Source: Scenedesmus sp. PABB004
Taxonomy: Eukaryota
Length of the DNA stretch: 64,000 nt
NCBI GenBank assembly: GCA_014905635.1
Contig: JABVCE010000030.1
Coordinates: 248,001-312,000, forward strand
Reading direction: 5' to 3'
Made by a program: the position numbers and the translations under genes
Part shown: piece after piece, positions 6,420 to 56,418 of the stretch
How the letters are laid out: every line of letters begins with the position of its first letter
How positions within the stretch are numbered: position 1 is the stretch's first letter
Notes under the pieces: generated by a model
What the model was told of the DNA's origin: nothing
Databases searched by the model: none
Seen by the model: only the letters and a program-made list of their open reading frames with translations

Positions 6420-7869
6420 TCACGCGCCGCCGGGCGGGCCCCCGCCGGCGTCGGCACCCGCGTAGACGGCGACATAGTCCACCAGCATGTCCGCCGGCGC
6501 GCGGTCGGGCGCGACGCCGGGGCCGACGAGGGCGCCGCCGACGGCGGTGTTGATGATGAGATAGAAGGGCTGGTCCAGCCACGCCCCGCCGCCGGCGGCC
6601 GGCCGCGGCATCCAGTGCACGCGGCGGCCGTTGGCGAGCCACGCGACGCCGCGGCAGGACCACTCGAGCTGGTACGTCGCCCACGCGCCGCCGGCGAGCG
6701 CGCCGGGCGGCGTGTCGAGCGCGCCGCCCGACCACGCGTGCCGGCCGGTCGCGGGGTCGGCAAAGTGCGCGGTGCCAAGCACGCGGTCCTGCGTGCCCAC
6801 GTGCTCCATTATGTCCAGCTCCCCGCTCGCCGGCCACACGCCCAGCGCGCCGCACTCGGCCCGCGCCGCGACGCCGCCGCCGGGCGCGGGCGGCGCGCCG
6901 CCGGGCGCCGGCGCCGGCGCCGGCAGCGCCGGCGGCGCGCCGCCGCCGCCGCACCCCGGCGCGCCCGGCTGCGGCTGCGGCATCATCCACAGCGCCGCCC
7001 AGCGCCCCTCCGCGGCGGGCACGCGCACGCGCGCCTCGATGACCACCGCGCCGCAGGGCCCCGCGCTCGCCGCGGCGGCGGCGCCGTCGGGCGCGGCGCC
7101 GCCGGCCCGCTGCGCGAGGCTGGCCAGCGCCTGCGGTGCCGCCCACTGCAGCAGCAGGCGGCCCTTGGTGTGGAGCTTGGCGCTGCTCCACTGGCTGGCG
7201 CCGGGCGGCGCGCCGGGGTTGGCGCAGGGCTGCGGGCTCGGTGACCAGCGCGACGTGATGCGCAGCACGCTGTCGCCGGGCGCCGCGGGGTTGGGCTCGA
7301 TGCCGGCGTTGGCTGGCGAGTCAGTATAACACTGAAGCTCCCCATTGCCCCAGCCTGCGGTGCGAGGCGGGCGAGCGGCTGGTCAAACGGCGGGTGCGAG
7401 GGCGCGCGCGAGGGCCGTGCCGGCGGGTCGCAGCGCTAGCGCTGCCAGTCGCAGCGCTGCGACTGGCCGGCGGGGCCCTGGCTGAGCGCGCGCGCTCACC
7501 CCTCAGGCCGTAGCTCGAGCCGTCGCCGAGGTCAAAGGCCCACGTCGAGGCGTTGAGGGAGATGAAGTCGTCCCTGAACAGCAGGGCCATGCCCCACGTG
7601 TCCATGCGCCCCTCAGGCCAGGCGGCGGCGGTGGTGGCGCGCTGCCGCCGCGCCGCGCGCGCCGTGAGGCCGAGCGGCAGAGCGACTGCGAGGATGAGCA
7701 GCACCGCCGTCGCCGCCGCCGCCGCACACGCCCACGCGCGGCGGCGGCCGCCGAACGCGCCGGCGCTGCTCGGCCGCTGGGGCGGCCCCGCCTGCTGCGC
7801 CTGCTGCTGCGCCACCCACTGCGCGGCGGCCGCGCGCTGGCGGTCGTCCCACAGCAGGTGCCCGGGCAT
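6420..7869 (-). CDS. Glycoside hydrolase family 16 (laminarinase/beta-1,3-glucanase type), N-terminal membrane anchor, catalytic motif intact (GH16a)
   Basis: Exon ~7869-7501 has a TM segment (AVLLILAVALPLGL) and LLFRDDF...WAFDLGDG. Exon ~7354-6420 has GWGNGELQCY, IEARVRVP, WAALWMMP, WPASGELDIMEH (ExDxxE at ~6804-6821), YQLEW and DQPFYLIINTAVGG...MLVDYVAVY. Confidence 0.92.
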
Positions 7870-7920
7870 CCTTCTGCGCTCCTTCTCGACCCAGAGCAAG
7901 CGCCGCCCGGGGCGGCACCG

Positions 7921-8480
7921 CTTCGCTGAGGTGAGGGGGCGAGAGGGCGGACAGGCTGGCCGGGGGCGAGCGCAGCAGGCGCGGGCGCGCGCCGCGGCGC
8001 TGCTGCGGGACAGCCGGCTGTCCCGCAGCGCACGGCGCCGTGCGCGAGGCGCGCGAGGCGGCCGTATTGCGGGCGCCCGTGAGCATGCAAAGCGTATGGG
8101 CGGGCTGCGTGCCTGCCTCAGCGCTCGTAGCGGCCGTGGCGGGCAGCGGCGGGCTGCTACAGCCGCGCTGTCACGCCTCGCGGCTCATGCGCCGCGTCCC
8201 AGGCCCTCCCCGCCGCTCCACACACTCTCCGCGCTAGTCACACGCGAACTGTCACGCGCCAGGCCGCGCCTGACGCCCCGCCGCGAGACAGCGACACAAG
8301 CCAGCGCCGCTGCTCGGCGCGCGGCGCCCAGCGCGGAGCCAGCCGCGAGGCGCGCGAATTGGGCGTGAGGCCAGCTCACGAGCCACCTCCCGGCAGCGCG
8401 GCGCCATGAGCGACAGCGGCGGCACGCCGCGCTTCCGCTGGCAGAGCACGAGCGCCGCCGGCGGCGCGCACGAGCCGTCC
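7921..8480 (+). repeat. Direct duplication copy 1 (matches 20671-21213): GH16/GT2 intergenic promoter plus the first ~25 codons of the large GT2
   Basis: Shared blocks include gacaggctggccgggggcgagcgcagcaggc, gccgtattgc..gagcatgcaaagcgtatgggcggg, ctagtcacacgcgaactgtcacgcgccagg and atgagcgacagcggcggcacgccgcgcttccgctgg. Confidence 0.95.
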
Positions 8481-8570
8481 GGCCTGTCACGGGCGGCGCC
8501 ATCAACGCGCCAATTACCGATCGGCGATCGCCAACTCGCTCAGGGCGGTTGCCCAGCACCAGCCGCGTGA
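8406..8570 (+). pseudogene. 5' fragment of the large GT2 gene (MSDSGGTPRFRW...), truncated
   Basis: Same start codons as 21133. Similarity ends at ~8480 and the frame closes at TGA 8568-8570. Confidence 0.75.
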
Positions 8571-10680
8571 TCACTCCGCGCCGTCGGCGCCCGCACCGTC
8601 GCCGCCGCCGCCGTCCGCCTGCAGCGGGCGCGTGCACCCGCAGCCGCTGCACTCGGCCCAGCGCGGCGCGTGCTTGGCGCGCTCGCAGTGCGACATGTAG
8701 CCGCGCACGTCGGCAAAGGCCTTGCCGCAGGAGCACGCGTAGCCGCCGGCGGGGCTCGACGCGCTGCCGAGGTCGTAGCGGCAGACGTCGCACGGCGCGG
8801 GCGACGAGTGCCAGAGCCGCAGCGCGCGGAAGACCTGCCCCGCCACGAGCACGTCCAGCGCCGCGTACTTGACCTGCGGCGCCCACGCGGCGCGCGCGGC
8901 GCGGAGCGGCACTGAGCGGGGCCTCGCCACGGCTCGCAGCGGCGCCGCCGCCGCGGCGCCGGCCGGCGGTCGCTGCGCGCGCTGCGAGCGCTGCGCCCGC
9001 CGCGCGCCTGGTTGCGTGTGAGCAGGCCGGCCTCCCAGTTGCTCATGGTGACCTTTTTGCTCTTGGGCATGTGCAGGCCGAGCACGGCGCGCGCGAGGCG
9101 GGCGAGGCCGAAGCCGTCGTAGCCGAGGCCCTGCGCGACGGCCTGGAGGTCGTGGAACGACCCAAAGTCGCGCAACCCGAGGCCAAACGTGCTCTGCATC
9201 TTGGGCTCGTCGCTCGACGCCCAGCTGAACCCGACGAGCGAGACCTGCGCCGCCGGGCGGGGGGCGGGGCGGGGTCAGCACGGGCACACGCGCCGCGCCG
9301 GGGCCGGGGCAGGGCCGGGGCCGCCGCCGCCGGGCGCACCGCGGGGTCGCGCAGGAACTCGGCCAGCGCGGCGGGGAGGCGGTAGTTCATCTTGCACGTG
9401 CGCACGAGCAGCGCGAGCCGCGCGCTCGCGAGCTGCAGCATCGCGACGGGCGTGAAGCGCCGCCCAAACTCGGGGCGCCACTCGAGGTCGATCGCGACGA
9501 CTGAGTCGGCCATGCTCGCGCGCAGCGCGCCCAGCGCGGCGGGCAGGTGCACAGCGTTCTCGACCACCAGCACCTGTCGGCGAGCGCGGGCGGAGGCGAG
9601 CGCGGGCGCGTCACACGGGCGGCGCGCGCGGCGCGGCGCGGGCGGCGCGGGCGCGCGCGTGGCAAGGCGCGCAGCCCGCGCGTCCCGCGCGCGCGCCTGC
9701 AGGCCGTCCGGCAGGTTGATGCGCTCGTAGCCCTGCGCGATCTTGAAGCTGGGGATGGTGGCCAGGTCGGTGGCCATCGCGCGGCCCCAGTCGACGTGCG
9801 GCAGCTGCACCTCGCGCCCGCACCAGCCCGGCGCGTGGAGGTGCCCGCACCCCGGCGGGCACGCCGGCACCGCGACGTGCGCCGCCGCGGCGGACGCGGC
9901 CGCGCGGCCCGCCGCCGCCGCCGCGGCGCCGAGCAGGCCCGCGCCCGCCGCGGCGCCGCGGAAGAGCGCCGACGCGCCGCCCGCCGCCGCGCGCGCGGCG
10001 GGGCCGCCGCCGTCGCCGCTGCGCGCGGCCGCCGCGTCGGCGCGCGCCTGCTCCTGCTGCCCGTGCAGCTGCGCGAGCACCTGCCGCAGCCGCGCCAGCT
10101 GCGGCGGCTTGGCCTGCGCGTCGCCCGCGCCGTCCGCGGCGGCGGCGGGGTCCGCCGCCGCGTCCTCCGCGCCGCCGGCGGCGTCGCCGCCCTGCAGGCG
10201 GTCGATGACCGAGGCGAGGCTCGTGCGGGCGCGCTTGCTCGCGAGCGCGCCGCCGGCGCTCGGCGCGGCGCCCCACGCGAGCACGCCGGCGCCGTCGGCG
10301 AGCGCGGCGCCGGCGCCGCCGCCGCCGTAGCGGGCCGCCAGCAGCGCCTCGGCCGCCTTGCGCTTCGCGCTCTTGGGCCCCGCGCGGCCGCTCGGCGGCG
10401 GCCCGTCGAGCGGGCAGGAGTCGGACGCGTTGCTGCTGCTCGGCGACGGCGCGGCGGCGGCGCCGGCGGCGCCCTTGCCGCTGCCGCACGGCGGCTGTGG
10501 CGTTGCGGTGGAGAGCCGCATGCGCGGCATCGTCGGCGCGCCCGTCGTCATCGTGCCCGGAGAAGGAGGCGCGGCGGCGGCGCCCGTCTCGGCCGCGCTC
10601 AGCAGCGCCGCGCCCCACGCGCGCAGCGCGGCCAGGGAGGAGTGTCGTGCTGCTGTGGCCGCCGCGGACCGCAAGCTCAT
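8571..10680 (-). CDS. DEDDy 3'-5' exonuclease (WRN/WEX-like) with C-terminal zinc-binding region, 4 exons
   Basis: ExoI VVAIDLEWRPEF, then VAMLQLAS, ExoII GFSWASSDEPKM, KSKKVTMSNWE and ExoIII QVKYAALDV. The C-terminus reads CDVC...CSCGKAF...SHCERAKH...CSGC. Exons ~10680-9698, 9573-9339, 9244-9008 and 8873-8571. Confidence 0.88.
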
Positions 10681-11174
10681 GCGGTCGCTGCGCCCTGCGG
10701 CGGCGGCGGCAGCGGCGGCGGCAGCGGCGGCGCATCAGCGGCCGACCGGCGGCTGCCGGCGCCCGCGGCGGCGCGGGGCGGCGGCACGTCGAGGCGCCGC
10801 GCTCACCCCGAGGGCGGCAAGCTCTGGCTGGGGCGGCGGGGCGAGGGGATAGGGGGGCGCCGCGCGGACGGCGGCGGCTCGCGGGCGGCGCTGCTGCCGC
10901 GCCTGGCTCTGCGGCTGCGCCCGCTCCGGCGCGTGCTTCGGCGAGGCGCGACGAGTGTGGGCGGTGCGTGGCGCGTCCGGCTGGGGCCCGAGCGGCGCGG
11001 GTCAGGCGCGGCAGCTCGCGAGGCGGCGGCCCCGCTGCCCCCGCGCCGATCGCGGTCGAGCGCCGTAGCCCACACACGCTCCCACGACGCTCGCGACCAC
11101 GCGCAGCAGCGGCAGCAGCAGCAGACGGGCAGCGCCTTCTCGCGCGAGCAGCAGCACCAGCGCAGCAGCACGCC

Positions 11175-12445
11175 ATGCTCGCTGCCGCGCGCCAGGTGGC
11201 GCAGGCGCGGCGCGCCGGCGCGGCGCCGGCGCCGGCGCCAGCAGCCGCCGCGCGCCGGCGCCGCGCCGCGCCGCGCCCGCCGCGCGGCGCCGGCAACAAC
11301 TCGACGCCCAGCGCGCTGTACGAGGCCAAGGTGCGACGATCGCTGGGCATGCGCGCATGCAGCCGGCGCGCATGCGGCGGCGCCGCCGCGCCGGGCCCCC
11401 GCGGGCGCTGCCAACCGCTGTGGCCCGCCGCCGCCGCGGCGCGCGGCCCGCTCGCGCAGAACTACGAGAAGGTCTCGGACGCCATGTCGTCGACGGTGCT
11501 CTACGCGTGCAGCCCGGACGAGACGGTGGACCAGGGTGCGCGGCCGGCGGCAGCTGCGCGGCGCATGCGCCACACGCCGCCCACGCCCACGCCGGCCGCG
11601 CCGCCGCCGCCCGCCGCAGCGCTGGAGAAGCTGGTGCAGTACCGCATCACGGGCCTGCCGGTCGTGGACGCCGCGGGCAAAGTGGTGCGGCGCGCCCACG
11701 GGCCCGCCCGGCGCCACGCCGCGCAGGGCCGCCGCCGCCGCCGCGCGCGCCCCGCGAGCGCGCGCCGCCGGCCGCGCGCCGCCGTGCTGTGTGTGCAGGT
11801 GGGCGTGGTCAGCGACTATGACCTGCTCGCCCTGGACAAGCTGGGCGCGGTGAAGAACGACACCGCGCTCTTCCCCGCCGCGGACGAGACGTGGCAGGCG
11901 TTCAAGGAGGTCAAGCGCCTGCTCGCCAAGAGCTCCGGCAAGAAGTGAGCACCGCCGGCGCGGGCGCGAGCGGCAGCGCCGGCGAGCAGCGCGGGGCGCG
12001 GCGGCGCCGGGCGGCGCGGCGCGGGCGCGCTCACTGCGCGGGCCCGCCCCGGCGCCCGCGCGCACCCGCCAGGGTGGCCGACGTGATGACCGCGACGCCG
12101 ATCACGGTGCAGCCCGACACCGACCTGGACGAGGCCGCGACGTGAGCCTCCGCCGCGCGGCGGGCGGGCAGGCGGCCTCCGCGCTGCGCGGCAGCGCGCG
12201 GACGGGCGGTGCCAGCCCGCCGCGGCGCCGGCGGGCCGCCGCCGCCGCCGGCTCGCTGCCGCCGCGGCGCCGCCCGAGCCCACAGCCGCGCCCGCCGCGC
12301 GCCGCGCCGCAGGCTGCTGCTGGCGAAGAAGATCCACCGCCTGCCCGTGGTGGACGGGCAGGGCAAGCTCGTGGGCGTGCTGTCGCGCGGCAACCTGGTG
12401 AAGGCCGCGCTCGCGGTGCGCCGCGCGGCCGCGGAGCAGCAGTGA
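11175..12445 (+). CDS. CBS-domain pair protein (CBSX-like, probable plastid transit peptide)
   Basis: Spliced exons NYEKVSDAMSSTVLYACSPDETVDQ / ALEKLVQYRITGLPVVDAAGK / VGVVSDYDLLALD...TWQAFKEVKRLLAKSSGK / VADVMTATPITVQPDTDLDEAA / LLLAKKIHRLPVVDGQGKLVGVLSRGNLVKAAL. Confidence 0.92.
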
Positions 12446-12487
12446 CGCCGCGGCGCGCCCGCGCGCGCCGCGCCGGCGGTGCGCGGC

Positions 12488-12489
<2 letters not shown>

Positions 12490-12547
<58 letters not shown>
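12490..12547 (+). repeat. (GGC)n microsatellite in the CBS gene 3' region
   Basis: About 19 perfect GGC units. Confidence 0.95.
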
Positions 12548-12548
<1 letters not shown>

Positions 12549-14374
12549 TGCAGCGGCAGCGGCCGGCGCCGCGGCGCGCCGCGGCGCGTGTCGCGCGGGC
12601 AACCCAACCAATCAATCTGGCGAGGGGAGAGCGCATCTCTTCCGAGCGCGCGTGACGCTGCCACCCAGGCCTTGCCTGGCGGGTAACTCGTGCCCATGAG
12701 CTTGCCTCCCCCCTCGGGCGCCAGCCGCCGTCGACGGTCCCCGCCCGCACGGCGTCAGCAGTCACCCGCCGGCCGACGCCATGCGGCGGCGCCCGGCTCG
12801 CGCCGCGTGCGTCTGGTGCGGGGCCGGCGAGCTGGCGCGACCTGTGTGTTACAGCTCTGGACGCCCACGCGCCAAGCGGCGGGCGCGTGAGCGCGATTTC
12901 CTCGGGCTGGCGGGCCGCGTGCGGTGGGCGCCGCCCGGCGGGTCGCGCTGCGGCGCCACTCGGGTGATCCACAGCAGTGTCGAGCTTGACGGTCGCGATG
13001 CGATGTGCGCGGCCGGCCCGATTGGCCGCTCCGCGCTGCACATCGAGCGCCCGAGCTCGCATCGCTGGCGCGCCCTGTGTGTCGCCCACAGCGCGCCACA
13101 GCTCAGCGCCCGCGGCGAGACGCACCGGCGAGCTGAGACCGAGCTGCCGGGAGCTGCTGGCGCGCGACCGCGCGCTGCATGCGACGTCGCGCTGCGCTGA
13201 ACCTGAGCGCGTCAACGACCCCGCGGCCGCCCGCCCCTCAGCGCTCCCCGCCGGCTCCCGCGCTGCTCCCACACTGCGCCCGCTGCTCCCCGCGAGCGGA
13301 CCGACAGGCCAGCGCAGCCTCCCTCGCCGGGCGCTTGCCGGCCCGCACCCGCACCCACTCGCCGGCGGCCAGCAGGTGCGCAAGCGGCGTCGCGGGCGCG
13401 GGAGGCAGCAGGGCGTGGACCTGGCGGCCGAACGCCGGCGCCGGGGGGCAGGGGGCGGGCGGCGCACCGGCCTCGGCTAACCAGCGCCACCCGGGCGCGG
13501 GCGCTGGGGGCCCGGGCCGACGCCCCGCGCGGCGTGGGGCGCGCGCTAATGCTCCGCGCCGCCGTCGCCGCCCGCGCGCGCCTGACCGCGCGCCACAGGC
13601 GTCGGGTGTGCCCTGTCAGTGCGGGCGGCCGCGACCAGCAGCGCCCCCAGGCGCCGCCGCAGACACCCGGAGGCGCCAAGCGGCACTCGACACGCAGGCT
13701 CCTCGCGCCGGCGAGCCCACAGGTGCGCCGCGGGCGGCGAGACGCAGCAGCCAAGGCGCTGGGGCAACTGCCTGCCCCGCCCGCGCGCCGGCGGCGCGGG
13801 CGGCCGGGCGGCGTGGCGCTGCGGCCTTGGCGACGCCGGCGCGCCAGAACGCCGCGCGGGGCGGCCGGCGCGGCGGCGCGTGGCGGGGGCGCGGGCGCAT
13901 GGCGCGCACCGTCTGCTCCCGCCCGCCCCGGCGCGCCCGCGGCCCCGCGGGCGGCCGTGAGGCTGTGGCGATCCGCGGGAGGCCCCCCGCCGCGGCGGCG
14001 ACGGGCGAGGGGCCCGCGCCGCCCCGCACGGCAGCAGTCGTTGCCTCGCGCCGGGCAGGGCCGCCTGCGCCCCCGGGGGCGGGCCATCGCGGCGCATTGC
14101 CCGCCCATCAACGCGCCCTCCGCGGCCCCGGGCACCGTCCCTGACGCGCCGCGCCGCGCCGCCGCCGCCGCGCCGCGCGCCCGCCGCGCCGCGCAGGCCG
14201 CCGACAGCAGCAGCAGCGCCGGAGCGCGCAGCGTCCGCGGCGACGCGGCGCCCAGCGCGGCGGCGCACGCGGGCGACGGCCGGACGCGAGGTGCGCGCCG
14301 GAGCCCGGCGGCGCGCGAGCGCGTGAGCGCGCAGGCGCAGGCGCAGCAGCAGCAGCAGAGGCGGCGACGCAACC

Positions 14375-17214
14375 ATGTGGTGGTACATCGCCTTTAGCAT
14401 CATCTTCACGATCTATGCAGTCGACCTGCTCTTCCTCTTTATCGCCTCGCTCTTTGCGGCGGTGACGGAGCACTTTGTGCCGCACCTCAGCACCGCGGCG
14501 ACCAAGGCGCACAAAAAGGCGGCGAAGCGCGAGGCCGCGAAGCAGCAGCAGGCCGCCGCCGCGGTGCGCGCGGCCGGCAAGGATGCCGGCGCCGCCAAGG
14601 AGATGTCGATCACGGTCGACACGCGCGGGGTGAGCAGTGCCGCGCAGGCGCGGGGCTCGAGAGGCGCGGGGCGCTCCTGCCGGCAGGGGGCCGGGCGCGC
14701 GCGCGCGCGCCCCCCTGCAGACGGCAGCGGCGCCAGCGCAGCCCGGTGGGCCGGCGCGCAGCGGCAGCGGCAGCGACGGCCGCGGCGGCGCGGCAGCTGG
14801 CGGCAGCCGGCGGGGGCGCAGCGGCTGTCGGCGGCGGCCGCCAGCAGCGGCGGCGGCCGGCGGCCAGCGCGCGGCGCGGCCAGGCGGCGGCGGCCGCCCC
14901 GCGCAGCGCAGCCGCAGGGCAGCAGCAGCCGCGCCTGGGCGTTGCGCGCGCGTGCCGCGGGCCGCCCTCGGCCCTCCGCTGACCGCGCGCCCGCGCCCGC
15001 GCCGCACGTCAGAACGTGGTGCCCGACCCGCCGCTGAAGGCGCCCGGCAATGACTTCAGCTACCTCACAGACCTCTACCACGGGGAGTTCCCCAAGGTGC
15101 GGCGCGGCGCGGCGCGGGCGGGCGACAGGCAAGGCTCCCGGGCCCGGCTGGCCCTGCCTGCCACGCGCCCCGCGGCTGGGTCGGCGGCGGCGCGCGCGCG
15201 CGCGCCGGCCGGCGCGCCGACCCGCGCGCGCCGCGCCCGCCCGCGCCCGCGCGCCGCCGCGCCGCGCCCAGGTGCTGATCCAGCTGCCGATGTACAACGA
15301 GGACGCGCACTGCGACCTCATCATCCAGCGCTGCTGCAAGATCAAGTGGCCCAGCCACCGACTCCTCATCCAGGTGCGCGTCGAGGCCGGCGCGGCCAGC
15401 GGCTGGCGACTGGCCCCTGCTGCTGCGGGGGGCTGCCGGCTGCTGGCGCCGCGCGCCTGCGCTGCGCGGCCCGCCGACGCCCCCCCCCCCCCCCCCCCCC
15501 GCGCGCGCCGCGCGCGCAGGTGTGCGACGACTCGACGCGCGAGAGCGTGCGCCAGAAGGTCGACGCCGCGGTCATCACGTGCCTGGAGCAGGGGCACAAC
15601 GTGCAGCTCGTGCGCCGCGACAACCGGTCCGGCTACAAGGCGGGCGCGATGGTCGACGGCATGGCGCGCGTGGAGGACCAGGGCTTTGAGTACGTTGCCA
15701 TCTTTGATGCCGACTTTGAGCCGCCCGAGGACTTTCTGTACGCGACCGTCATCCACATGGTGCGCGACGACAACATCGCGTTTGTGCAGACCTGCTGGAC
15801 CTTCATCAACAGCGACTCCCTGCTCACCTGGTGCGGCACACACCGCACGCGCTGACGCCGCGCGGCGGCGGCGGCGGCGCTCGAGCGGCGCGGGGGGCGG
15901 CGGCGCGGCGCGGGAGCGCGGGAGCGGCGGCGGCGGCGCGGGCGCGGGCGCGGCGGCGGCGGCGCGCTGAGCGCCGCCGCTCCCCCGGCGCGGCCGCGCG
16001 ACCGCAGGGCGCAGAAGGTCGGCCTCGCGTTCCACTTTGCGGTCGAGCAGCGCGCGCGCAGCTTCCTGGGCCACTTTTTCAACTTCAACGGCACCGCGGG
16101 CGTGTGGCGCATCCGCGCCATCAACGACGCGGGCGGCTGGGAGAGCGACACGGTGGTGGAGGACATGGACCTCTCGCTGCGCGTGTACCTCAAGGGCTGG
16201 CGCAGCATCTACCTCCACGACGTCAAGTGCCCCAACGAGCTCCCCTCCACGCTCTCCGCGTACAAGACGCAGCAGTTCCGCTGGCTGAGCGGGCCGATGC
16301 AGATCGTTCGCAAGTCGTTTGCCAACATCTGGTTCAGCAAGTGCGGCCGCGCGCGCGCGCGGCCGCCGCGACTGCGCCCGCGCCCCTGCGCCTGCGCCGC
16401 GCGCCGCGCCGCGCCTCCCTCCCAGCCCTTCTCTCTCCCGCGCCCCGCTCAACCCGCGCCGCGCCCTCTCACCCCCCGCCGCGCCGCCGCCCGCGCCGCC
16501 CCGCGCAGGGACATCGGCCTGCTGTCCAAGCTCAACTGCTACTGGTTCTTCTGCCGCTACTTTGTGTTTGCGATCGTCACGATCGTCGCGCTGCTCGCGA
16601 GCCCGATCGTGCTCTGGCTCGACCCCTGGGTCTGGGGCTTCCCCACGATCTACTTCCTCGTCTCTGCCAACGTCGCGGTCGTGGTCTACCTCTACTTTAC
16701 GATCTTCTCCTACGTCTTCCTGCTCTTCAGCGTCGTGCTGGGGTACTTCAAGGTGCGCGCTGAGGCAGGGAGGCAGGGAGGGAGGCAGGCAGGCAGGGAG
16801 CGAGGGAGGGAGGCAGGGGAGAATGAGAGGAGAGAGGAGGCGGCCGCCCTTGCTTGCGCGCGGCGGCGGCCGCGGCCGCGGTCTCGGCGCGCGCGCCAGC
16901 TCTGACCCGCCGCCCCGCCCCCGCCCCGCGGCACGCGCGCGACGCGCGCGGCGCAGATGTGGGCGATGACGTCGGGCATCCTCGGGCTCAAGAAGTCCAA
17001 GTCCTGGAAGGTCACGCTCAAGTTTGCGGCCAACGACAACAACAGCTGGCTCCGCTCCTACCACAAGCCCTACACGCTCGAGCTCGCGCTCTTTGCATAC
17101 TACGGCGCCATGCTCGGCTGCAGCATCTGGTACGAGAACTGGGGCCTCACCGCATACAACGGCGTCATGTCGCTCGCCTTCCTCGTCGTCGCGTTTGGCG
17201 ACTACTTCCTGTGA
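14375..17214 (+). CDS. Cellulose synthase-like GT2 (CslA/CslC/CslK-type beta-glycan synthase), 7 exons
   Basis: N-terminal TM, then VLIQLPMYNE, QVCDDST, RRDNRSGYKAGAM, IFDADF (DxD), FNFNGTAGVWRI, TVVEDMDL, ELPSTLSAYKTQQFRW (QxxRW) and multiple C-terminal TMs. Exons ~14375-14629, 15013-15097, 15272-15373, 15520-15830, 16008-16340, 16509-16752 and 16957-17214. Confidence 0.95.
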
Positions 17215-18169
17215 GGCGGCGCGACGCGGCGCGGCGCGACGCGGCGCGAGGCGAGGCGAGGCTGTCGGCGGCGTCGTGCGCGCGCGCGCGCGCCGCGGCC
17301 CGCCGCGAGGCGCGGCGGCAGCGCGCAGGCGCGCGGCGGCGCAGGGGGCGGCGCGGCGGGCGGGCGGCGGCGGCGCGCAGCAGCAGCGCGCCGCCGCTGC
17401 GGCCCGCCGCCGCGCCGCGGGCGGCGGGCCGGGCGGGGCGCGTGTGCACCCCCGGGGGCGCGCGGAGTTGTGTGGGGCGCGCGCAGCCGCCGCTCCCCCC
17501 GCGGCGCGAGCCCGCGGGGCGACGCACTGCGCTGGGGGGGCTTTCTGACGGCCCCTCAAGACTCGTGGGCCGGCGGGGCGGCGCTAGGCCCCCTGCGCTC
17601 TCTCTCTCTCGCGCTCTCTCTCGCTCTCTCTCGCTCTCTCGCTCGTGCGCGTGGCGCGGGGAGCCCGCGCGTCCGCGTCGGGGCGTGGGCCCCAGATCGC
17701 GCCCCGCGCGCGCGCCCGCGGCGGCGGCACCGGAGCCAGCCGCCCCTCGCTCACGGGGGCGCATACGCCACCACGGCGCTGGCCATATACTCATCGGTGA
17801 CCGCCCGCGGCGGCCGACCGCGGCCGGCGCGGCGCGGCGCGGCGCGGCGCGCGTTAGCTCGACACAACGCACGGCCACGCATTGCGGCTCGCCGCGTGAC
17901 ACCCGGCGGCTGGGTTTGCGGTTAGGAACGCCAACGCACTGCTAGAGTGCCGGCCGCGAGGCGACGCCAGGCGTCGGCGCGACGCACTGCGACGAGGGGG
18001 AGGGGGTCGCGGGTGCACAGAGGCCGGCGGCGGGGCCGGCGGCGGCGGGGCTCGGGGGCTCGGGGCGCGCGCGTCGCGCGGCCCGCCCCCGCAGCCGCCG
18101 CCGCGGGCCCGCGGCGGCGGCGGCATGACTGCTGAGCGTGTGTGCGAAACAGGCGTAGGCGCGCTGCGT

Positions 18170-18174
18170 TTACA
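18170..18174 (-). terminator. TGTAA polyadenylation signal (probably for GH16b)
   Basis: ttaca on the + strand, ~540 bp downstream of the GH16b stop. TGTAA is the established chlorophyte poly(A) signal. Confidence 0.55.
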
Positions 18175-18715
18175 CATACACTTAATCGGGGGACGCGGCC
18201 ACAGCGGCGGTCCCCCGCCTACGTACTCTCGAGCAGGGCCTGTCTGGGCGGGTGTGTCGGGCGTTGGCAGGCAGGCGGCTCAGATTGCACAGAATTGCGC
18301 CTGCTGCGTGGCGCCGCACCAACGCCCCGCGGCTGGTGCGAGCCGCCCGCGCGCCGAGCGTGCTGCCCTGTCGGTGTCGGCCCGCGCCGCGCGCCCGCGG
18401 CGGCCTGCGGTCGCGGCGGCCTGAGCCGCGCGCCCGCGGCCGCCGGCGGTCGCGGCCGGGCGCACTCGAATAAGCACCACCGAGGCCGCATCTGTGTGCG
18501 CGCAAGCGAGGAATGCGAGGGCCCTGCAACTGAAACGCGACGAGCCCGCGCGCGGTGTCCGGACCGGCTGCGCGAGCGCAGCCCCGCCCTCGGCCCGCGC
18601 GCCAGCGTCAGCAACTCGGCCCCAGCCGCAAGACTCTTGAGATTGGCCCAGCAGACTCTGCCACACACACCGACCCTTCCCTCCCGCACGCTCTCTCTCT
18701 CTCTCTCTCTCTCGC

Positions 18716-20556
18716 TCACTCGCGCATGCCGTTGGGGGGCAGCAACGGCACGGCGGCGGGCGTGTCGGCCGCGGCCGCCGCCGCCGCGCCGCCGTCCGCC
18801 GTCGCGCCGCGCGCGGGCGCGGGCGCGGCGCGCGCCACGTTGGCGGTCGGCGGCGCCTCGTCGGCGGGGAAGGCGCGCAGCCAGTCGATGAGCATCGCGC
18901 TGGGGCTCAGCACGGGGTCGGGACTGCTCGGCACGAGCTGCCCGCCGACGTGGTGCGACGCCTCGATGAACATGGGCTGGTCAAACGGCCACGCGGGGAG
19001 GTCGAAGCGGCTCACGCCGTGCGCCTTGGCGCCGTCCACGCTCCAGCGCACCCAGTCGCAGCTCCACTCCAGCCGGTACACGTGCCAGTCGCCCGCGGTG
19101 TCGCCGAGGGGGTACGAGTCGAGCCCGCTCCAGCCCGGCGCGCCGCCGCCGGTGCCGTACTGCAGGAACAGCGACACGCTGGTGGAGGTCGTGACGTGCT
19201 CGGCGATGCTGATCTGCCCGCTCGCCGGCCAGAGGCCATAAGCGCCGCACTCGTCGGCGGCGGTGCAGTGGGTGCTCGCGTTGCCCGCCGCCTCGGCGCT
19301 CTGCGTCTGGGGCTGCGGCAGCAGGCGCAGCCCGCTGCGCGTGCCGGGGGCGGTGGGAAATTTGACGCGCGCCTCGATGGTGATCGCCGTGCAGTCTGGC
19401 GGCGCGCGCGCGGCACGAGCGCAGGGCGGGCGGGCGGGCGGGGTGGGCGCGTGACGGCAGCGCGCGCGCGCGCACACACGCACATGCGCCAGCGGCGTGC
19501 GCCCCCCTCTGCGCCAGCCCCACCTTGGCCGGGCACGGCCTGCGGGGGCGCAAACACGCGCTTGCCCTTGCTGCGCACGCCGCCAGAGCGCCACGCGGTG
19601 CGCACCGCGCCGTACGGCTCAGCGCCGCCGGCGCAGAGCACGGGCGGGGCGTGGTACGTCGCCGCGAGGCGCAGCACGCTGGTGGAGCTGGCATTGCGCG
19701 CGGGCGCGAGCGGGTCAGGCGCGGTGCCCGCGTTGGCGGTGAAGCTCTCAAAACACTGCAGCTCGCCGAGCCCGAAGCCCAGGAAGTTCCAGCCGCGGTC
19801 GAGGCCGTTGCCGATCTTGAAGGACCAGCTGCTGTTTGAGATGGAGCTGAAGTCGTCGTAAAAGACCTGCCGCGGCGCGGCGCGGCGCGGCGTCAGCAGA
19901 ACCAGCAGCTGGCTCTGCAGCGCGCGCGAGCCCAGCGGCTGGCCGTCCGCCGCAGCCGGCGCGCCGCGCGTCTGCGCGCGCGCCCGCGCGCGCCCCGCGT
20001 GGGCGCACCTCGGTGAGCGGCGGCACCGGCGGCAGCACCACGGGGCGCAGCAGCGCGGCCGCGGCGGCCGCGGCGGCGGCGGCGGCTGCCGCGTCTGCGG
20101 CCTCCGCGCGCTTGACCACGACAAAGTAGTAGGTGGGACCCACGACGCTGGGGACGACCACCGCGACGAGCACGGCCGCCCAGATCAGGCGCGCGCGCAG
20201 CCGGCTGGCCGGCGGCACGGGCACGTCCTTGTAGTGCACGCCCGGCTCGGGGCAGGCCGGGCCGCCTGGCGACGACGTCGGCGGCGGCGGCGCGGCGGTG
20301 GGCGCTGGGGCTGCAGCCGCTGCGCCCATACACTGGCCGTACGCTCGCGCGCTGCATGCAGCGCATGCACCCGCGCCGCGCGCGGGCGTGCCGCACCCGG
20401 GCCGCGCGGCAGGTCCAGGGCGAGGTCGGGCGGCGGGCCCTCCTCAGGAATGGCGGCGCGCGGCACGACGTCCCAGTCCTCGGAGCTCGAGAGGCTCGGG
20501 ATGGGCGCGGGCTCGCCGCCCATGTGCAGGCTGTGCGCGCTGCTGCTTGGCCGCAT
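18716..20556 (-). CDS. GH16-fold protein with N-terminal membrane anchor and degenerate catalytic motif (GH16b, probable pseudo-enzyme), ~4 exons
   Basis: TM LIWAAVLVAVVVPSVVGPTYYFVVV, then VFYDDF, GFGLGELQCF, ITIEARVKFP, WPASGQISIAEH (vs ELDIME), WHVYRLEW, FDQPMFI...VGG and MLIDWLRAF. The reading frame is intact through the splice sites. Confidence 0.88.
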
Positions 20557-20670
20557 GGCTGCGACAGCGGGCACCGCGGCGAGGCGGCGGTCGGCGCGCG
20601 CAGCGAGCAGCGCGGCCGCCCGCGCAGCGCCGGCGTGTCGCCAATTGGCTGGCGCGGCTCACCTCAGACA

Positions 20671-21213
20671 CTTCGCTGGGATGAGGGTGGCGTGAGAGCG
20701 GACAGGCTGGCCGGGGGCGAGCGCAGCAGGCGCGGGCGCGCGCCGCGGCGCTGCTGCGGGGCAGCCGTGCGCGAGGCGCGCGAGGCGGCCGTATTGCGGG
20801 CACCCGTGAGCATGCAAAGCGTATGGGCGGGCCGCGCGCCTGCCTCAGCGCTCGTAGCGGCCGTGGCGGGCGGCGGCGGGCTGCTACAGCCGCGCTGTCA
20901 CGCCTCGCGGCTCATGCGCCGCGCCCCAGGCCCTCCTCGCCGTCCCACACACCCTGCGCGCTAGTCACACGCGAACTGTCACGCGCCAGGCCGCGCCTGA
21001 CGCCCCGCCGCGAGACAGCGACACAAGCCAGCGCCGCTGCTCGGCGCGCGGCGCCCAGCGCGGAGCCAGCCGCGAGGCGCGCGAATTGGGCGTGAGGCCA
21101 GCTCACGAGCCACCTCCCGGCAGCGCGGCGCCATGAGCGACAGCGGCGGCACGCCGCGCTTCCGCTGGCGGCGCACGAGCACGAGCGCCGCCGGCGGCGC
21201 CCACGAGCCGTCC
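20671..21213 (+). repeat. Direct duplication copy 2: bidirectional promoter between GH16b (-) and large GT2 (+), plus GT2 5' codons
   Basis: Near-identical to 7921-8480. It lies mostly between the divergent ATGs at 20556 and 21133. Confidence 0.95.
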
Positions 21214-24200
21214 ACCCTCTCCCGGGGCGGCGGCAGCAGCGGCGACGGCGCTCCTCCGGCCCGGCCGGGCCAGGCCGTGCTCGAGCGCAGCGGCAATGGC
21301 GGCGCCGGCGCGCTGCCGTCCGCGGCGGACCAGCGCGGACTGCCGACCTCCTCCTCCTTCCTGACCGACCCGAACGCCGGTGAGGGGGCGGGAATGGCAG
21401 TTGGCCATTCCCGAACGGCGCCCGGGCGGCAGGGATGGCAGCTGGCGCTGGTGGCCGAGGAGCGCGCGCGGTCAACCCTCGCCCGCCCGCTGCTGCCGCT
21501 GCCGCCGCCGCTCGCCGCCGGCGGCACGCGTGCAGCTGCGCGCCGTCGCGCGCCGCCGCTGCCGCCCGCCGCGCGCCGCCGCGCGCCGCCGCCCACCGCC
21601 GCCCACCGCCCCCGGCCCACCGCCGCCGGCCCACCGCCGCCCGCCGCCGCCCGCCGCGCCGGGCCGCGCCGCGCAGGCGACGACGTCCGCAGCGCGCTCG
21701 GCACCACCAGCACCACCAGCACCAAGAAGCTCCGCGCCATCGGCGGCAACGATATCACGCTGCACTTCTTCACTTCCAAGAAGCTCGACCTCTCCAGCGG
21801 CAGCGGCGCGGGCAGCGAGGCCAGCAGCGAGCACGGCAGCGACGCCGGCGACGCGGAGCCGCCGCCGCGCGTGCGCATCAACACCCACATGTGCGCCCGA
21901 GCCGCCGCGCCGCCGCGCCTGCGTTCCGCGCCGCCGCACTGCAGCCGCGCCGCGCTGACAGCGGTCACGCCCGCCGCGCGCGTCGCCGCCGGCGCAGGTA
22001 CACGGGCGGCATGACGCTGATGGCCCTCGCGGCGGTGGCGGGCATGAGCTTCTACAACGTGAGACCTGCTCACGCCCACTGAGCAGCCGGCAGGCGCCCC
22101 TCACGCCGGCGCGCGCGCCGCCCCGGCGCGCGCGCGCGCGCGCGCCCAGCTCACCCGCGCGCCCAGCTCACCCCGCGCGCCGCCACGACCTGCCCCGCCG
22201 CGCCGCCAGGTCACGATGACCATCCTGCGCCTGAAGACGTACTACGCGGCGGTGAGGGCGCGTCGGCAGCGCTGCCGCCGCGGGGCTGCGCGCTGGTCAG
22301 CCCTGCCGCCGCCGACGACCTGGGCCCTAAACCCTTAACCCTGGTTTTGAACCTCTCAACCCCTGAACCGCCGCCCAGGTGGTGTTCATCTTCATCCCGC
22401 TCGGCATGATCTTTTTCTCCTTTGCCGTCTCCTGCGCCGTGCGCGGCGTGTTCAGCGTCATCCTCGGTGCGCGCCGGCGCTCCGCGCAGCGCGGCGCGCG
22501 GGCCCGCCCCCGGGGGCGCCAGCGTGGCGCCGGCCCTGCAACGCACCGCGCGCGTCCGGCCCTATGCAGCGCCCGGCACGGCGCGCGCGGGCGGCAGCCG
22601 CCGACCCTCGCCGCCGCCGCCGCCACCGCCGCCCGCCGCCGGCCAGGCGGCACGAGCCCGCTGGAGATCAACTCCCAGAACTTCAGCGCCATCAAGACGC
22701 CCGTGCCCAAGGGCACGGCGCTGCCGCAGATCATCGTGCAGATGCCCGTCTACAAGGAGGGCCTGGCCGAGGTCATCGCGCTCAGCTACTTCAAGTGCGC
22801 CCGCGGGGGCCCCTGCGCGCGGCGCGCCGCCGCACGCCGGCCCGCCGCAGGCTGGCCGCAGGCTGGCCGCAGCGCGCCGCGCGAGCGTGGCTGAGAGAGG
22901 CTCCGCCGCCCGCCCGCCCGCCCGCCCGCCCGGGCGCGCGCGCGCGCACACACAACCCCGCAGCGTCAAGGCGGCAATGGACTACTACGAGTCCAAGGGC
23001 GGCCGCGCCAAGTTCATCATCTGCGACGACGGCTTCCAGGCGCGCACCAGCCCCGCCGCGCAGGCGCCGCCCCTCGACTTGGAGGCGGCGCCGCCGCCCA
23101 CGCCGCGCGCGGCTGGCCGCCTCAGCTGCCGCGCCCGCACCCCCGCCCCCCACCCCCGGCCCCGCAGGTCATCCCGCCGGAGGAGGCGGTCGAGCGGTCC
23201 AACTTTTACGCCAAGCACGGCATCGCCTTTGTCGCACGCCCGCCCGCCAACCGGCGCGGCGTGTTCAAGAAGGCACGCGCCGCGGCCCGCCGCCGCGCCG
23301 CGCCGCGCGCGCCGCGCCGCGCGGCCCGCCCGAGCCGCCGGCGCTCAGCCTCTCCTCCTGTGCCGCCGCCGCACCGCTGCCGCCCCACCGCGCAGGCGTC
23401 CAACCTCAACTACCAGCTCTCGGTCAGCGATGCGATCGGGCAGGCCATGGCCGCGACGCCCGGGCTGAGCGTGCACGACGCGCTCGCGCGCGTGTGGGAG
23501 GACCGCGAGCGCGAGTTTGTCGCCGCGGGCGACCTGTCCATGGAGTCCGACTGCCTCATCCTGCTCATTGACGCGGACACCAAGGCGCGGAGGGACTCGC
23601 GCGCGCGGGGGCGGCGCGGGCGCCGCGCGGCGGCGGAGCGGGGGCGCGCCGGGCGCGGGGCAGCGCACAGGGCGCGCGGGCGGCGCGAGACGCGCGGGGC
23701 GGGGGCATACAGGGCGCGGCGCGCGCCGTGGCGTGCTGCGACGGCGTGCTGAGCGCGCCGTGGCCGCGGCACCTGCGCAGGTGCCTGAGCGCTGCATGTA
23801 CGACGTGGTCGGCGAGTTCCTGGACTCCCCCTCGGTCGCGTACACGCAGCACTACACCACGCCGTTTGACGACCAGTGCCGCAACTACTGGCGCGTCGCG
23901 GAGCCCCGCGCCGCGCCCGCGCGGGGCTCGCGCGCCGGGCGGGCCCCGCTCACGCGCCGCGCAGCTCTGCGCCCGCGCGCGCCTCATGAGCGCCCGCGCG
24001 CGCCGCCTGCCCTGCCCTGCCCTGCCGCGCGCCGCAGGGAGGCGCACGTGAGCGAGTTCACGCGGACCATCTACTTCCATGGCATCGCAGTCATGGTCGC
24101 CTACGGCGACTGCTGCCCCCTGGTGGGGCACAACGCCTTCCTGCGCTGGGAGTCCGTGCGCAAGGCGCGCTGCGCTGCTGCGAGTGCTGCGCGTGCTGCG

Positions 24201-27139
24201 CGTGCTGCGCGCTGCGCGCCGCGTGCTGCGCCGCACGGCGCTGGTGGTCGGCCGCGCCGCAGAGCCCGCTGCGGCCGCCGCCGCGGCGACACGCGCCCGC
24301 CGCGGGCGCGGCCGGCCGCCGCGCAGATCGGGTACCGCGACGAGAGCTGCCGCGAGGGCGAGACCAAGTGGTGGAGCGAGAACAGGCGCGCGCGCGCGCA
24401 GCACAGCGCGCTCGTCCTCGGCCGCCAGCGCGCTGCGCCCCCGCGCTGACACGCCGTACTTACGCGCCGCGTCCGCGCAGCGTGAGCGAGGACTTTGACA
24501 TGTACATCCGCCTCGCCAACATCGGGGCCTTTGGCCGTTACGTCATGTACACCGGTGCGCCGCCAGCCAGCACCGCACACGCAGCCGGCAGCTTGTGTGT
24601 GTGCAGCCCGCGCCGCGCCGCGCCGCGCCGCGCCGCGCCGCGCACAGACACACAGGCCACGGGCGCCGGCGCCGGCCGGGCGCGCGTGCGGCGCGCGGCG
24701 CGCGGCGCGGCGAGACGCCGCCGCGGCCCGCCGGCGCGCGCAGGGGACGAGTTCCAGGAGGGCGTGAGCCTCACCTACATGGACGAGGTCATCAAGGCAC
24801 GGCGCGGCAGCGCAGCGCGCGCAGCGCACCTCCAGCTGCGCCGCGCCGCGCCCTGGGACGTGCGCGCGCGCCGCGCCGCGCGGCGGCCGACCTGCTGCGC
24901 CGCCCTCCCCGCCGCCGCCCTCGCTGCCCCTGCAGATGAAGAAGTTTGCCTATGGTGCGCCCGGCACGCCCCGCGCTGCACGCTGCGCGCGCCGCGCGCT
25001 CGCCCCGCGTGGCGGTCCCCACCCTCCTCCCTCGCGCGCCCCTCCCCTCCCTGCTCCCTCGCGCTCCTAAACCCCCCTACACACACGCCCTACACACCCC
25101 GCTGCAGGCGCGTGCGAGATGATCTTCAACCCCTTCCGCCTCTGGCCGCTGCGGGGGCCCTTCAACCGCGGATTCACCACCTACCTGCGCAACGCCAACA
25201 TCGCGTGGTGCGGCGCGAGCAGCCGCGCCGCCGCGCCGCGCGGCAGCACCCGCCGCCGCGGCGCTGCAGCGCGCGCAGCGCGCAGCACGCCGTCGCGCAG
25301 CGCAGCACGCCCAGAGGCTCTTGCGCCGCCGCGCCGCGCCGCCGCCGCCCCCCGCAGGTACCAGAAGGCCTCCATGGTGCGCGCCGGGGGGCGCGGGGCG
25401 CCCGCCGCGGCAGGGCGCGGTGCCGCGCGCCACGGCTGCTCACGCGCCGCCGCCAATGCCGCGCTGCCCCCTCCCCCCACACACGCGCAGCTCATCTACC
25501 TCAGCTCCTACCTGGTGCGCCTGCGGCGCAGCGGCAGCGGCCCCCCTCGCGCCGCGCCCGCGCCGCCGCGCACCGCCGCGCCTCGGCGCCACCCGCGCGC
25601 CGCCGCCACACGGCTTGTCACCCACCCACCCCCGCGCCGCCGCTGCCGCCTGGCGCTTCACCTCTCTGTGCAGGCAATGGGCGCTGCGTTCTTCTACGTC
25701 ATGTTTGAGGGCATCATGAGCGTGATCGACCCCAAGGCACGCGCGGGGGACGTGGGAGGCGTGCGGGCGCGTGCGGGGACGCGTCGCGCGCGGCAGCAGC
25801 CTGCTGTGCCGCGCCGCGTGGCGCGCCGGGGCGCGGGCCGCGGGCGCCCTGACCTCCGCCGCGTGCGCAACCTCTCTTTCTGCCCCCCCCCCCCTTGCCC
25901 CCCCCCTGCCTTGTCCCTCTCAGTTCCACGACTACTTCCTCACGCGCTCCTTTGACGTCATGCTCACCTGCACCGTCGTGTTCGGCGGCCTCGGTGCGCG
26001 CGCCGCGCGCCGCGCGGCCCGAGCGTGCGCGCGCGATGCGGGCCAGCTCCAGCTCCCTGACCCCGCCGCCGCCGCGCGCCGCTGCATGCCCCCGCCCGCC
26101 CGCCCTAAACCTGACGCCCGCCCTAAACCTGACGCCCGCCCTAAATCCTGGGCAGGCACGTTCTGCGGCGGCATCTTCTACCAGTGGCGCCGCGCGGGCG
26201 CCAACCGCAAGGCCAACATCTTCCGCATCTTCTGGGACCAGGCGCGGCACCGGCGCACCGCCCCCGGGGCACCGCAGCACTGCGACCCTCCAGCAACGCC
26301 ACGCCCCGGGCGGGGCGGGCGCAGCGCGCCGCCCGCGGCCGCAGCCACGCCGCGCGCGCGGCCTGCCGGCTGAGCTGCCGCCGCGCGCTGCGCGCGCTGT
26401 GCGCTCGCAGGTCAAGTTTGTGCCCACCACGGTCCTGTTCTTCAACAGCGTGCTCTTCCCCATCACCGAGGTGCGCGCGTAGTGCTGCTGTTGTTGTTGG
26501 CGCGGGCGGCGCCGCGCGCTGCGTGCGCCGCGCGCGCGCCTGGCCGCCGCCCACGCGCCGCGCCGCCTCGTACGCGTGCGGGCACCTGCGCGCGCCGCCG
26601 CCAGGTGTGCTTCACCTACTTCTTTGGGCTCAAGGCACGGCCCTGGGGGCAAGGGGGGAACAGGGGGAGCGCGGCGCGTCGCGCCAGCCAGCCGCCGCAC
26701 CCAGCTGCGCCCGCAGCTGCGCGGCGCGAGGCTCAGCCCGCGCCCCCGCCGCGCGCGGCGCCGCCGCGGCGGCGCAGGTGGTGTGGGGCGCGACCGCCAA
26801 GGAGACGACGCGCAAGTCGTGCTGGGAGGCGCTGCGCGAGACGGTGGTGGGGTACAAGTGGGAGTACCTGCTGCTGGCCACCATCCTCGTGGGCTACAGC
26901 GTCTGCCTCTGGTACTGGCAGATCGGGACCTACCGCGGGTGCGGCAACTTGCGGCGGCCGCGCGGCGGCCAGCCCCGAGGCGGCCCGCCGGCGGCGCCAC
27001 GGCCAGGGTTGACCAACCCAGGGTTGAAACCGCCCGGCCGTGTGCGCGCGCGCGCAGGTGGGCGCTGATGCAGTACACCATCGGCCACCTGCTGGGGCCC
27101 ATCCTGCTCAACCCGCACATCATGGCGCTCGGCTGGTAG
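21133..27139 (+). CDS. Large multi-TM processive GT2 glycosyltransferase resembling a fungal GT2 family, ~25 exons
   Basis: Spliced motifs QIIVQMPVYKEGL, KFIICDDG, RRGVFKKASNLN, ILLIDADTKVPE, CPLVGHNAFLRW, KWWSENSVSEDFD, FQEGVSLTYMDEVIKMKKFAYGACEMIFNP, WGATAKE and GPILLNPHIM. TM segments at both termini. Confidence 0.9.
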
Positions 27140-55800: not shown

Positions 55801-56418
55801 GGGGGCACCACGCACGTCGACGCGTACCTGCGCGGCGCGCTCGCGGCGCGCCCCGGCGGCGGCGCCGGCGCGGCGGGGCTGCTGCTGACCGCGCTGTCGG
55901 TGTGGGTCGACCGCTCGGCGGCCGGCGGCGGGACCAACACGACCGCGCCGCCCGAGGGCGGCCCCGTGCCGCTGCCCGGAGGCGGCGGCGGCGACGGCGG
56001 CGGCGGCGGCGCGGCGCTGCCGGCGCGGGGGCTGGCGCTGTCGCTGTGGGTCGACCACAGCGTGCTGGAGCTGTTTGCGGAGGGCGGCCTCGCGCGCGTC
56101 GCGAGCAGGGTGTATCCGGACGACGATGGGGTCGCGTGGGGCCTCGCCGCGTGGGCGCTGCCGCCGGCACGCGTGCCGCCGCCGCCGCCGGCGCCGGGCG
56201 GCGACGCGTCCGGTCGTGGCGGCGGCTGGCTCCGCGCGAAGCTCGCCTGCCTCTGGTGCCGGCTGAGCGTGGGGGGCTGCGACTGCCGCTGCGGCGGCGG
56301 CGGCGACCCCGCCTGCGCGGCGGCGGCCGCCGGCGGGGACGGCGACGGCGGCTGGGAGGTGCTCGTCGACGGGAGCGTGTGGGAGCTGGGCAGCGCGTGG
56401 CTGCCGCCAGACTGCTGA
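52834..56418 (+). CDS. Secreted glycoside hydrolase family 32 (beta-fructofuranosidase/invertase-like)
   Basis: Signal peptide, then [76 protein letters not shown] and [11 protein letters not shown]...SRVYP. Confidence 0.93.

Follow-up and report, generated by a model that had tools for sequence, protein, structure and literature searches.

A transmembrane GH16 gene and a divergent GT2 gene form a conserved pair in Scenedesmus sp. PABB004: a candidate synthase-remodeler module

Green-algal walls are poorly understood outside the CESA superfamily, and they set a limit on how well biomass of Scenedesmus and Tetradesmus can be processed. A locus of Scenedesmus sp. PABB004 in which two GT2 glycosyltransferase genes and two genes of the glycoside hydrolase family GH16 lie within 21 kb raises the question of which of these genes, if any, work together on a wall polymer. 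We analysed the 64,000 nucleotides of contig JABVCE010000030.1 (assembly GCA_014905635.1, positions 248,001 to 312,000 of the forward strand), hereafter the window, and call the four genes, in their order along it, GH16a, GT2#1, GH16b and GT2#2. An earlier note on this DNA had read all four as one beta-glucan module. Pfam, homology and motifs together show that the four genes are real and lie where that note had placed them (Table 1), and part of its proposal holds: a GH16 gene beside a large GT2 gene of the GT2#2 type is a conserved pair, seen in Tetradesmus obliquus and in fungi. We consider it fairly probable that these two genes form a conserved synthase-remodeler module. The inclusion of GT2#1 is not supported, given that nothing ties it to the pair, and the parts that the note gave to the two GH16s (the dead copy an accessory subunit, the active one a trimmer) are putative.

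The closest homolog of GH16a is T. obliquus OEZ85_000478, at 47% identity. It belongs to a run of consecutive loci on one 3.9-Mb contig in which OEZ85_000477, OEZ85_000479 and OEZ85_000480 are all GT2 genes, and a second T. obliquus assembly has the same order (OEZ86_008908-008911). The linkage of GH16 to the large GT2 is kept, then, in both assemblies, and the GT2 neighbours recovered are all of the GT2#2 type. In the GT2 tree, GT2#2 of the window has the group of three T. obliquus copies as its sister, from which one GH16 next to one GT2 is likely to have been the ancestral state.

The pairing extends to fungi. A scan of metagenome contigs gave 598 pattern matches, 522 of them confirmed as relatives, and the best 80 of these 522 yielded 79 fungal-type loci, most of which are 30-38% identical to the T. 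obliquus protein P0036. Many of these loci are just 2-5 kb long, so the counts were split by length of flank. A GH16 gene is present in the flanks of 12 of the 79 loci. Where the upstream flank is 3 kb or longer the count is 12 of 35, and where it reaches 6 kb or more it is 11 of 25; on the downstream side, a flank of 3 kb or longer is available in 25 loci, and none of these has a GH16 there. Collapsing identical rows leaves 11 distinct positives, while distinct negatives whose flank is 6 kb or longer number about 10 when counted by hand. In a FastTree GT2 tree the positives are spread over four clades or more, namely L042 beside Lipomyces, L058 beside Metarhizium, L028, and a clade of 26 rows in which nine loci have the GH16 and one amply flanked locus (L065) clearly does not. 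The GH16 and the GT2 are on the same strand in nine loci and divergent in three (L028, L042 and L058), and the 2-4 kb between them hold no conserved coding segment other than the N-terminal exon of the GT2. In the fungal partner GH16s the motif GEIDI(M/A/V)E is intact, and they have a conserved cytosolic stretch and one transmembrane (TM) helix; for the partner in L070, the top solved matches are 4dfs and 3azx, with 2vy0 lower. Pairwise distances between the GH16s and between the GT2s are correlated (r=0.82, 45 pairs from 10 loci, with up to ∼50% difference in both proteins), a result which shows long co-inheritance and not, by itself, co-evolution.

Could the adjacency be an inherited gene order without functional coupling, the GH16s being ordinary wall hydrolases? 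Several observations favour this possibility, or otherwise weigh against a module. The algal evidence comes from two genera of one family, so that synteny alone could be inherited order. Of the distinct fungal lineages in which the flank is long enough, about half have no GH16, and a GH16 lies within 8 kb of the GT2 in one of 49 bacterial loci, and near it in neither of two viral loci (L129 and L130). The GH16 tree, which was sampled through hits to GH16a alone, places the fungal partners in a clade of their own and the algal GH16s among bacterial laminarinase-like sequences; since the two partner groups are not sister clades, the pairing may have two separate origins, or one GH16 may have taken the place of another. 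Three features of the proteins belong on the same side of the balance: in the alignment of 76 GT2#2 family sequences, (R/K)xxK(F/Y)AYG stands at the place of the QxxRW motif; neither P0036 (E-values up to 1) nor a nine-sequence profile of the family (up to 10) matches any solved chain; and the tryptophans of the cleft are gone from GH16b, which weakens a glucan-binding role for that protein. Inherited order nonetheless accounts poorly for a fungal pairing that persists at ∼50% protein divergence with the GH16 always upstream, for its presence in several GT2 clades, and for a fungal GH16 subfamily that differs from the algal one, which is hard to explain by inertia alone. We therefore think inherited order unlikely, and return to the module.

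Within the window, GH16b and GT2#2 are arranged head-to-head. The distance between their start codons (ATG 20556 to ATG 21133) is 576 bp, in agreement with the ∼575 bp of the earlier note; should GH16b start at 20329 instead, the gap is 803 bp. The same note had seen like sequence upstream of both GH16 genes, and this proves to be a duplicated block of ∼590 bp (91%, 539 of 595 aligned positions identical), present at two sites in the window. Copy B spans everything between GH16b and GT2#2 and runs 108 nt into the annotated coding sequence of GT2#2, and the edge of copy A lies 52 bp upstream of the ATG of GH16a. Copy A includes the start of GT2#2, which there runs into a stop after 54 codons. 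Because copy A thus consists of an intergenic region and a dead-end GT2#2 start, we take the block to have been copied from GH16b/GT2#2 to GH16a, or to have been homogenised by conversion. Set against the ∼39-41% identity of the two GH16 proteins, the 91% identity of the block suggests that this happened well after the GH16 duplication. It follows from the block that GH16a, GH16b and GT2#2 probably share regulation.

The block is not found at GT2#1, given that the two copies described above are the only two in the window searched. This bears on the reading of all four genes, both GT2s and both GH16s, as one co-regulated beta-glucan cluster. All four do lie within 21 kb, and GT2#1 appears to be a bona fide processive-type synthase. 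Its approximate exons (14375-14640, 15270-15380, 15520-15850, 16055-16370, 16510-16755 and 16960-17211) encode the motifs LPMYNE, FDADF, VEDMD and QQFRW, its PF13632 score is 52 bits, and its best solved relative is BcsA (7.7e-11); the CelA and PgaC models of NCBIfam stay under their cut-offs. On these motifs and matches, GT2#1 is by its sequence a processive-type GT2 of the cellulose-synthase superfamily, a group marked by D, DxD, TED and QxxRW and by a C-terminus of multiple TM helices. By its motifs it looks CslA/C/K-like and may belong to the chlorophyte CslK group. It resembles the CslA/CslC/CslK clade in motif set and in having the length expected of that group. The CslK group occurs in chlorophytes, and its function is reported as unknown in PMC3797821. 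The two GT2s had been called unrelated in the earlier note, a description that fails, given that both match PF13632.

Between GH16a and GT2#1 lie other genes: an open reading frame (ORF) on the minus strand (9046-10734) with high G+C at third codon positions (GC3), on which Pfam gives no match, and a CBS-domain gene on the plus strand (∼10497-12442). A candidate identification of the former as a 3'-5' exonuclease was dropped for want of Pfam support. We leave GT2#1 out of the unit, since these genes stand between it and GH16a and it has no copy of the shared block: in our reading it is a separate synthase that happens to lie nearby. The recovered T. obliquus neighbours, being all of the GT2#2 type, speak against a four-gene cluster as well, as does the remainder of the window, which holds housekeeping genes and starch or fructan genes (among 90 ORFs scanned, MORN, OTU1, glycyl-tRNA synthetase, GH32 and isoamylase-like genes). 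We regard a cluster of all four genes as very unlikely.

The module that we favour consists, on the synthase side, of GT2#2 and its family. Mapping against P0036 and against P0034, an AT-rich homolog, resolves GT2#2 into 17 or more small exons between 22403 and 27136, with the stop codon at 27137-27139. All family motifs are present (QMPVYKE, FIICDDG, FKKASNLNY, LLIDADT, YTQHY, PLVGHNAF, VSEDFD and KKFAYGACE), and the exons of the window score 29.3 bits with PF13632 (Glyco_trans_2_3). That domain is the sole Pfam match in all eight family proteins scanned, seven of which score 93-116 bits. Across the 76 family sequences, DDG, RxGxFKKASNxN, DxD, QH, GHN and ED are invariant or nearly so, as are the residues D166, D167, D264, D266, E370 and D371. 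Hydropathy predicts two TM helices at the N-terminus, then a long soluble domain, then several further TM helices towards the C-terminus, which is the layout of membrane-integrated synthases.

A frame of 326 aa in GT2#2 is 99% identical to the GenBank protein HT031_006148 (P0033) of Scenedesmus sp. PABB004, which marks the window as nuclear DNA of this chlorophyte or of a near-identical strain. The deposited model of that protein (938 aa) translates several in-frame introns and skips the exons of ICDDG and LLIDADT; the annotated protein is therefore without two catalytic motifs that the DNA encodes.

The GT2#2 family is large. A profile search of 1.84 billion representatives gave 1583 matches at E≤1e-3, 980 at E≤1e-10 and 371 at E≤1e-30. 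Named members come from the stramenopile algae Phaeothamnion and Chrysoparadoxa and from the fungi Lipomyces, Metarhizium and Kwoniella, and a protein atlas gave the same distribution with the addition of diatoms. The fungal members, including those of loci L013 and L033 (DUF7928+PF13632), carry an N-terminal DUF7928 (PF25550), which is not present in any of the eight algal or protist members scanned; despite this difference, the GT2 domains of the two groups are, on their sequences, homologous. Among the 49 bacterial loci, export-type genes lie beside the GT2 in L081 and L082, as expected for a synthase-dependent exopolysaccharide. In a Myxococcales metagenome-assembled genome (MAG; L081:2553-14146) the gene order is GH16 and a GH2-like gene on the opposite strand, an HlyD-type membrane-fusion gene, the GT2, and a gene for a giant surface protein of the Ig/lectin kind. 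The GT2 of a deltaproteobacterial MAG (L082:7980-11784) is followed by a TolC-type outer-membrane gene of the OEP type. In Ruminococcaceae and Fusobacterium MAGs (L086:7716-11531 and L093:7692-11609) the GT2 is part of a fusion protein that also contains DUF5050 and a Ser/Thr protein kinase domain, with a second DUF5050 gene following. The two viral contigs, one from a giant-virus MAG and one of 421 kb, encode relatives at 28-32% identity.

The partner, GH16a, has a coding sequence of two exons (7869-7500 and 7354-6420, stop included) encoding 434 aa. The model was defined by homology to the chlorophyte GH16 protein P0002, and its 145-nt GT..AG intron (7355-7499) restores the junction DGSSYGLR|GWGNGELQCYT. 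The catalytic motif SGELDIMEH retains ExDxxE as ELDIME, as the earlier note had read it. The ORF 6423-7268(-) of GH16a itself scores 19.4-20 bits with PF00722, under the cut-off of 22, yet it is placed in GH16 through its homologs: it is 47-48% identical to P0001 and P0002 (47-54% with P0042 included), and these three proteins score 36-39 bits and match solved laminarinases at E=1e-28. The solved structures best matched by the algal protein P0042 are 2vy0, 4dfs and 3azx, all endo-beta-1,3-glucanases, and GH16a resembles these enzymes; we class it as laminarinase-type by its closest characterised relatives. Beside its laminarinase-like GH16 domain, GH16a has one TM helix (AAAAATAVLLILAVALPLGL) and is by prediction a type II membrane protein. 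It is not placed in the SKN1/KRE6/Sbg1 family, PF03935, which matches none of the window ORFs and none of three fungal neighbour GH16s, and which scores P0042 at 24.5 bits and P0002 at 18.1 bits against a cut-off of 30. The sub-threshold match, in the N-terminal part of P0042, we treat as a lead only. Relative to its orthologs, GH16a carries an Ala/Pro/Gly-rich insertion of ∼23 residues, placed before the catalytic strand (window 6812-6990), which may be a further unrecognised in-frame intron.

GH16b has the same build. Its Pfam GH16 score is 27.8 bits (cut-off 22), and its exons run from 18716 to ∼19414 (the last, with the coding end at 18719), from 19561 to 19866, and, for a TM exon (LIWAAVLVAVVVPSVVGPTYYFVVV) lying upstream, from ∼20100 to 20260, with the start at 20556 or 20329. 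Both GH16 proteins are thus anchored by a single N-terminal TM segment, and the motif of GH16b is degenerate, two points on which the earlier note was correct. The motif reads SGQISIAEH (QISIAE), in which the nucleophile E has become Q and the D has become S, so that ExDxxE is lost. In an alignment of 15 rows, GH16b also lacks the nearly invariant W254, A256, W258, N379 and A381. A maximum-likelihood tree joins the four Scenedesmaceae-type GH16s in one clade (99/96) with GH16b as its first branch (81/83), on a branch 4-5 times longer than that of GH16a (2.01 vs 0.45). By these sequences, the paralog GH16b is old or else evolves fast.

These data are also open to the explanation that the GH16s serve wall turnover, in daughter-cell release or autolysis, acting on a polymer made by another enzyme and timed with GT2#2 through the shared promoter, with GH16b an incipient pseudogene. 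The likeness of GH16a to endo-beta-1,3-glucanases would suit such a role, as would the long branch of GH16b and the loss of its catalytic and cleft residues. However, an enzyme with such an anchor would stay on the membrane of the cell that makes it, next to the synthase, and the pairing in fungi points to a connection with synthesis. Furthermore, the frame of GH16b is open, with strong codon periodicity and a GC3 of 0.92-0.98, which argues against an old pseudogene. We rate a turnover role as quite improbable.

There are two possible explanations for GH16b within a synthase-remodeler module, and it could equally be either. The first is that it is a non-catalytic partner, in binding or in trafficking, while the second is that it is a decaying copy. 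In insects, catalytically dead GH16 proteins bind glucan. For trafficking, PMC13612389 describes Sbg1 of Schizosaccharomyces pombe, a member of the SKN1/KRE6/Sbg1 family and a relative of Ghs2, as needed for the trafficking of the synthase Bgs1. A TM partner of this kind would be a model for the dead GH16b, with the difference that Sbg1 represents a conserved family and GH16b a recent lineage-specific paralog known from its sequence alone.

The features on which this account rests are collected in Table 1. The G+C content of the window is 74-82% in 2-kb steps (∼79% overall), because of which long ORFs crowd all six frames: 89 ORFs of at least 150 aa overlap the region 5-29 kb. Genes were accordingly identified by codon-position G+C, Pfam and homology. 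The introns are short and often stop-free, and ORF lists and deposited gene models across the window read through them. The GH32 gene (fructosidase or invertase type) and the isoamylase-like gene mentioned above lie at 53496-56415 and 59671-62687 on the plus strand, and have no tie to the wall module.

Table 1. Features of the locus, in window coordinates, with the evidence for each
Feature	Position	Strand	Evidence
GH16a	6420-7869	-	homology, motif, splice sites
Duplicated block, copy A	7921-8507		aligned to copy B
Start of GT2#2 exon 1, dead-end copy (MSDSGGTPRFRW...)	8406-8570	+	open for 54 codons, then stop
Intervening genes outside the module	9046-12442		ORF scan and Pfam
GT2#1	14375-17214	+	PF13632, motifs
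GH16b	18716-20556	-	Pfam GH16, homology, TM exon
Duplicated block, copy B	20671-21241		GH16b/GT2#2 intergenic region and first 108 nt of annotated GT2#2 coding sequence
GT2#2	21133-27139	+	HT031_006148; PF13632, family motifs

How might such a pair work? GT2#2 would be a membrane-integrated, probably processive glycan synthase, with a cytosolic GT-A domain bearing DDG, DxD and ED between its two sets of TM helices, and would extrude a beta-glucan, most likely one with beta-1,3 links. Outside the membrane, and perhaps in contact with the synthase, the type II anchored laminarinase-like GH16 would cut, branch or cross-link the nascent chain. In Scenedesmus sp. PABB004 the GH16 appears to have been duplicated, GH16a keeping the catalytic triad and GH16b, beside the synthase, losing the nucleophile, and the intergenic block copied in front of GH16a would place the three genes under shared regulation. 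Because both groups of partner GH16s best match solved endo-beta-1,3-glucanases, we suggest, tentatively and as somewhat short of probable, that the product class is a glucan containing beta-1,3 links. A more far-reaching version of the proposal has, in our estimate, a slim chance of being correct in full. In this version the GT2#2-type clade would be the synthase of a wall beta-glucan that lacks an assigned one (candidates being beta-1,3/1,4 or beta-1,3/1,6 glucan in chlorophytes and beta-1,6-glucan in fungi) and would act in an obligate membrane complex with the TM-anchored GH16, in which branching or trimming would fall to GH16a and the dead GH16b would be a chaperone of the Sbg1 kind.

For a clade of this size (371 representative clusters at E≤1e-30), a conserved GH16 neighbour is a direct handle on function, and, should the pair be a true synthase-remodeler unit, it would name candidate genes for an unassigned polysaccharide of fungi and algae. 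A literature search on the GH16/GT2 pair (glucan synthase, fungal wall and Scenedesmus, with supplements outside its scope) found no description of it, and a search under the domain name DUF7928 found no paper at all. The Neurospora crassa GH16 paper contains nothing on TM-anchored GH16s of the laminarinase type. A synthase with a dedicated anchored GH16 is a known principle; this GT2 clade, the conserved adjacency and the spread of the clade over algae and fungi appear not to have been described.

Processive GT2 synthases with a dedicated endoglucanase are known from bacteria (BcsA/BcsZ, the hydrolase being of GH8, periplasmic and soluble) and from plants (CESA/KORRIGAN, GH9). Those pairs differ from the present one in their hydrolase families, and sequence searches with the GT2#2 clade retrieve no solved chain of BcsA or CesA. 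In oomycetes, GT48-GH16 fused proteins are recorded (cited in PMC13612389); they likewise couple synthesis to a GH16, but in one polypeptide and with GT48, where the algal pair has separate adjacent genes and a GT2.

Other wall-related GT2 synthases of fungi, Cps1/ZtGT2 and Tft1/CelA, invite comparison (PMC9500679, PMC5653360 and preprint 10.64898/2026.09.17.752320). Cps1/ZtGT2 was considered as a possible relative of the GT2#2 family, a lead that we dropped, given that the Botrytis paper gives Cps1 one N-terminal and two C-terminal TM helices, against two and several in the family. According to these sources, Tft1 makes mixed-linkage glucan and aligns with HvCSLF6 at 29.5% identity, while the GT2#2 family matches no solved chain, and CelA is reported absent from Cryptococcus, while a Kwoniella protein belongs to the GT2#2 family. 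By this indirect comparison, both would stand apart from it.

The closest known system to the GH16/GT2#2 pair, by analogy, is Ghs2-Bgs3 of S. pombe. According to PMC13612389 (Nat Commun 2026), Ghs2 is a TM GH16 protein that co-purifies with the GT48 synthase Bgs3 and is proposed to branch the nascent chain. As in our model, the partner of a multi-pass glucan synthase is a protein that crosses the membrane once and bears its GH16 domain outside the cell, and remodelling of nascent beta-glucan is the proposed function. The two systems differ in their components, that of S. pombe joining a GT48 to a Kre6/Skn1-type GH16 and that of the alga a GT2 (PF13632) to a laminarinase-like GH16, and in their evidence, the former pair being shown by co-purification and the algal and fungal GT2-GH16 pair being known from gene adjacency alone. 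If the latter is a true synthase-remodeler unit, the principle of Ghs2-Bgs3 would extend from GT48 to GT2 synthases, and from fungi to algae.

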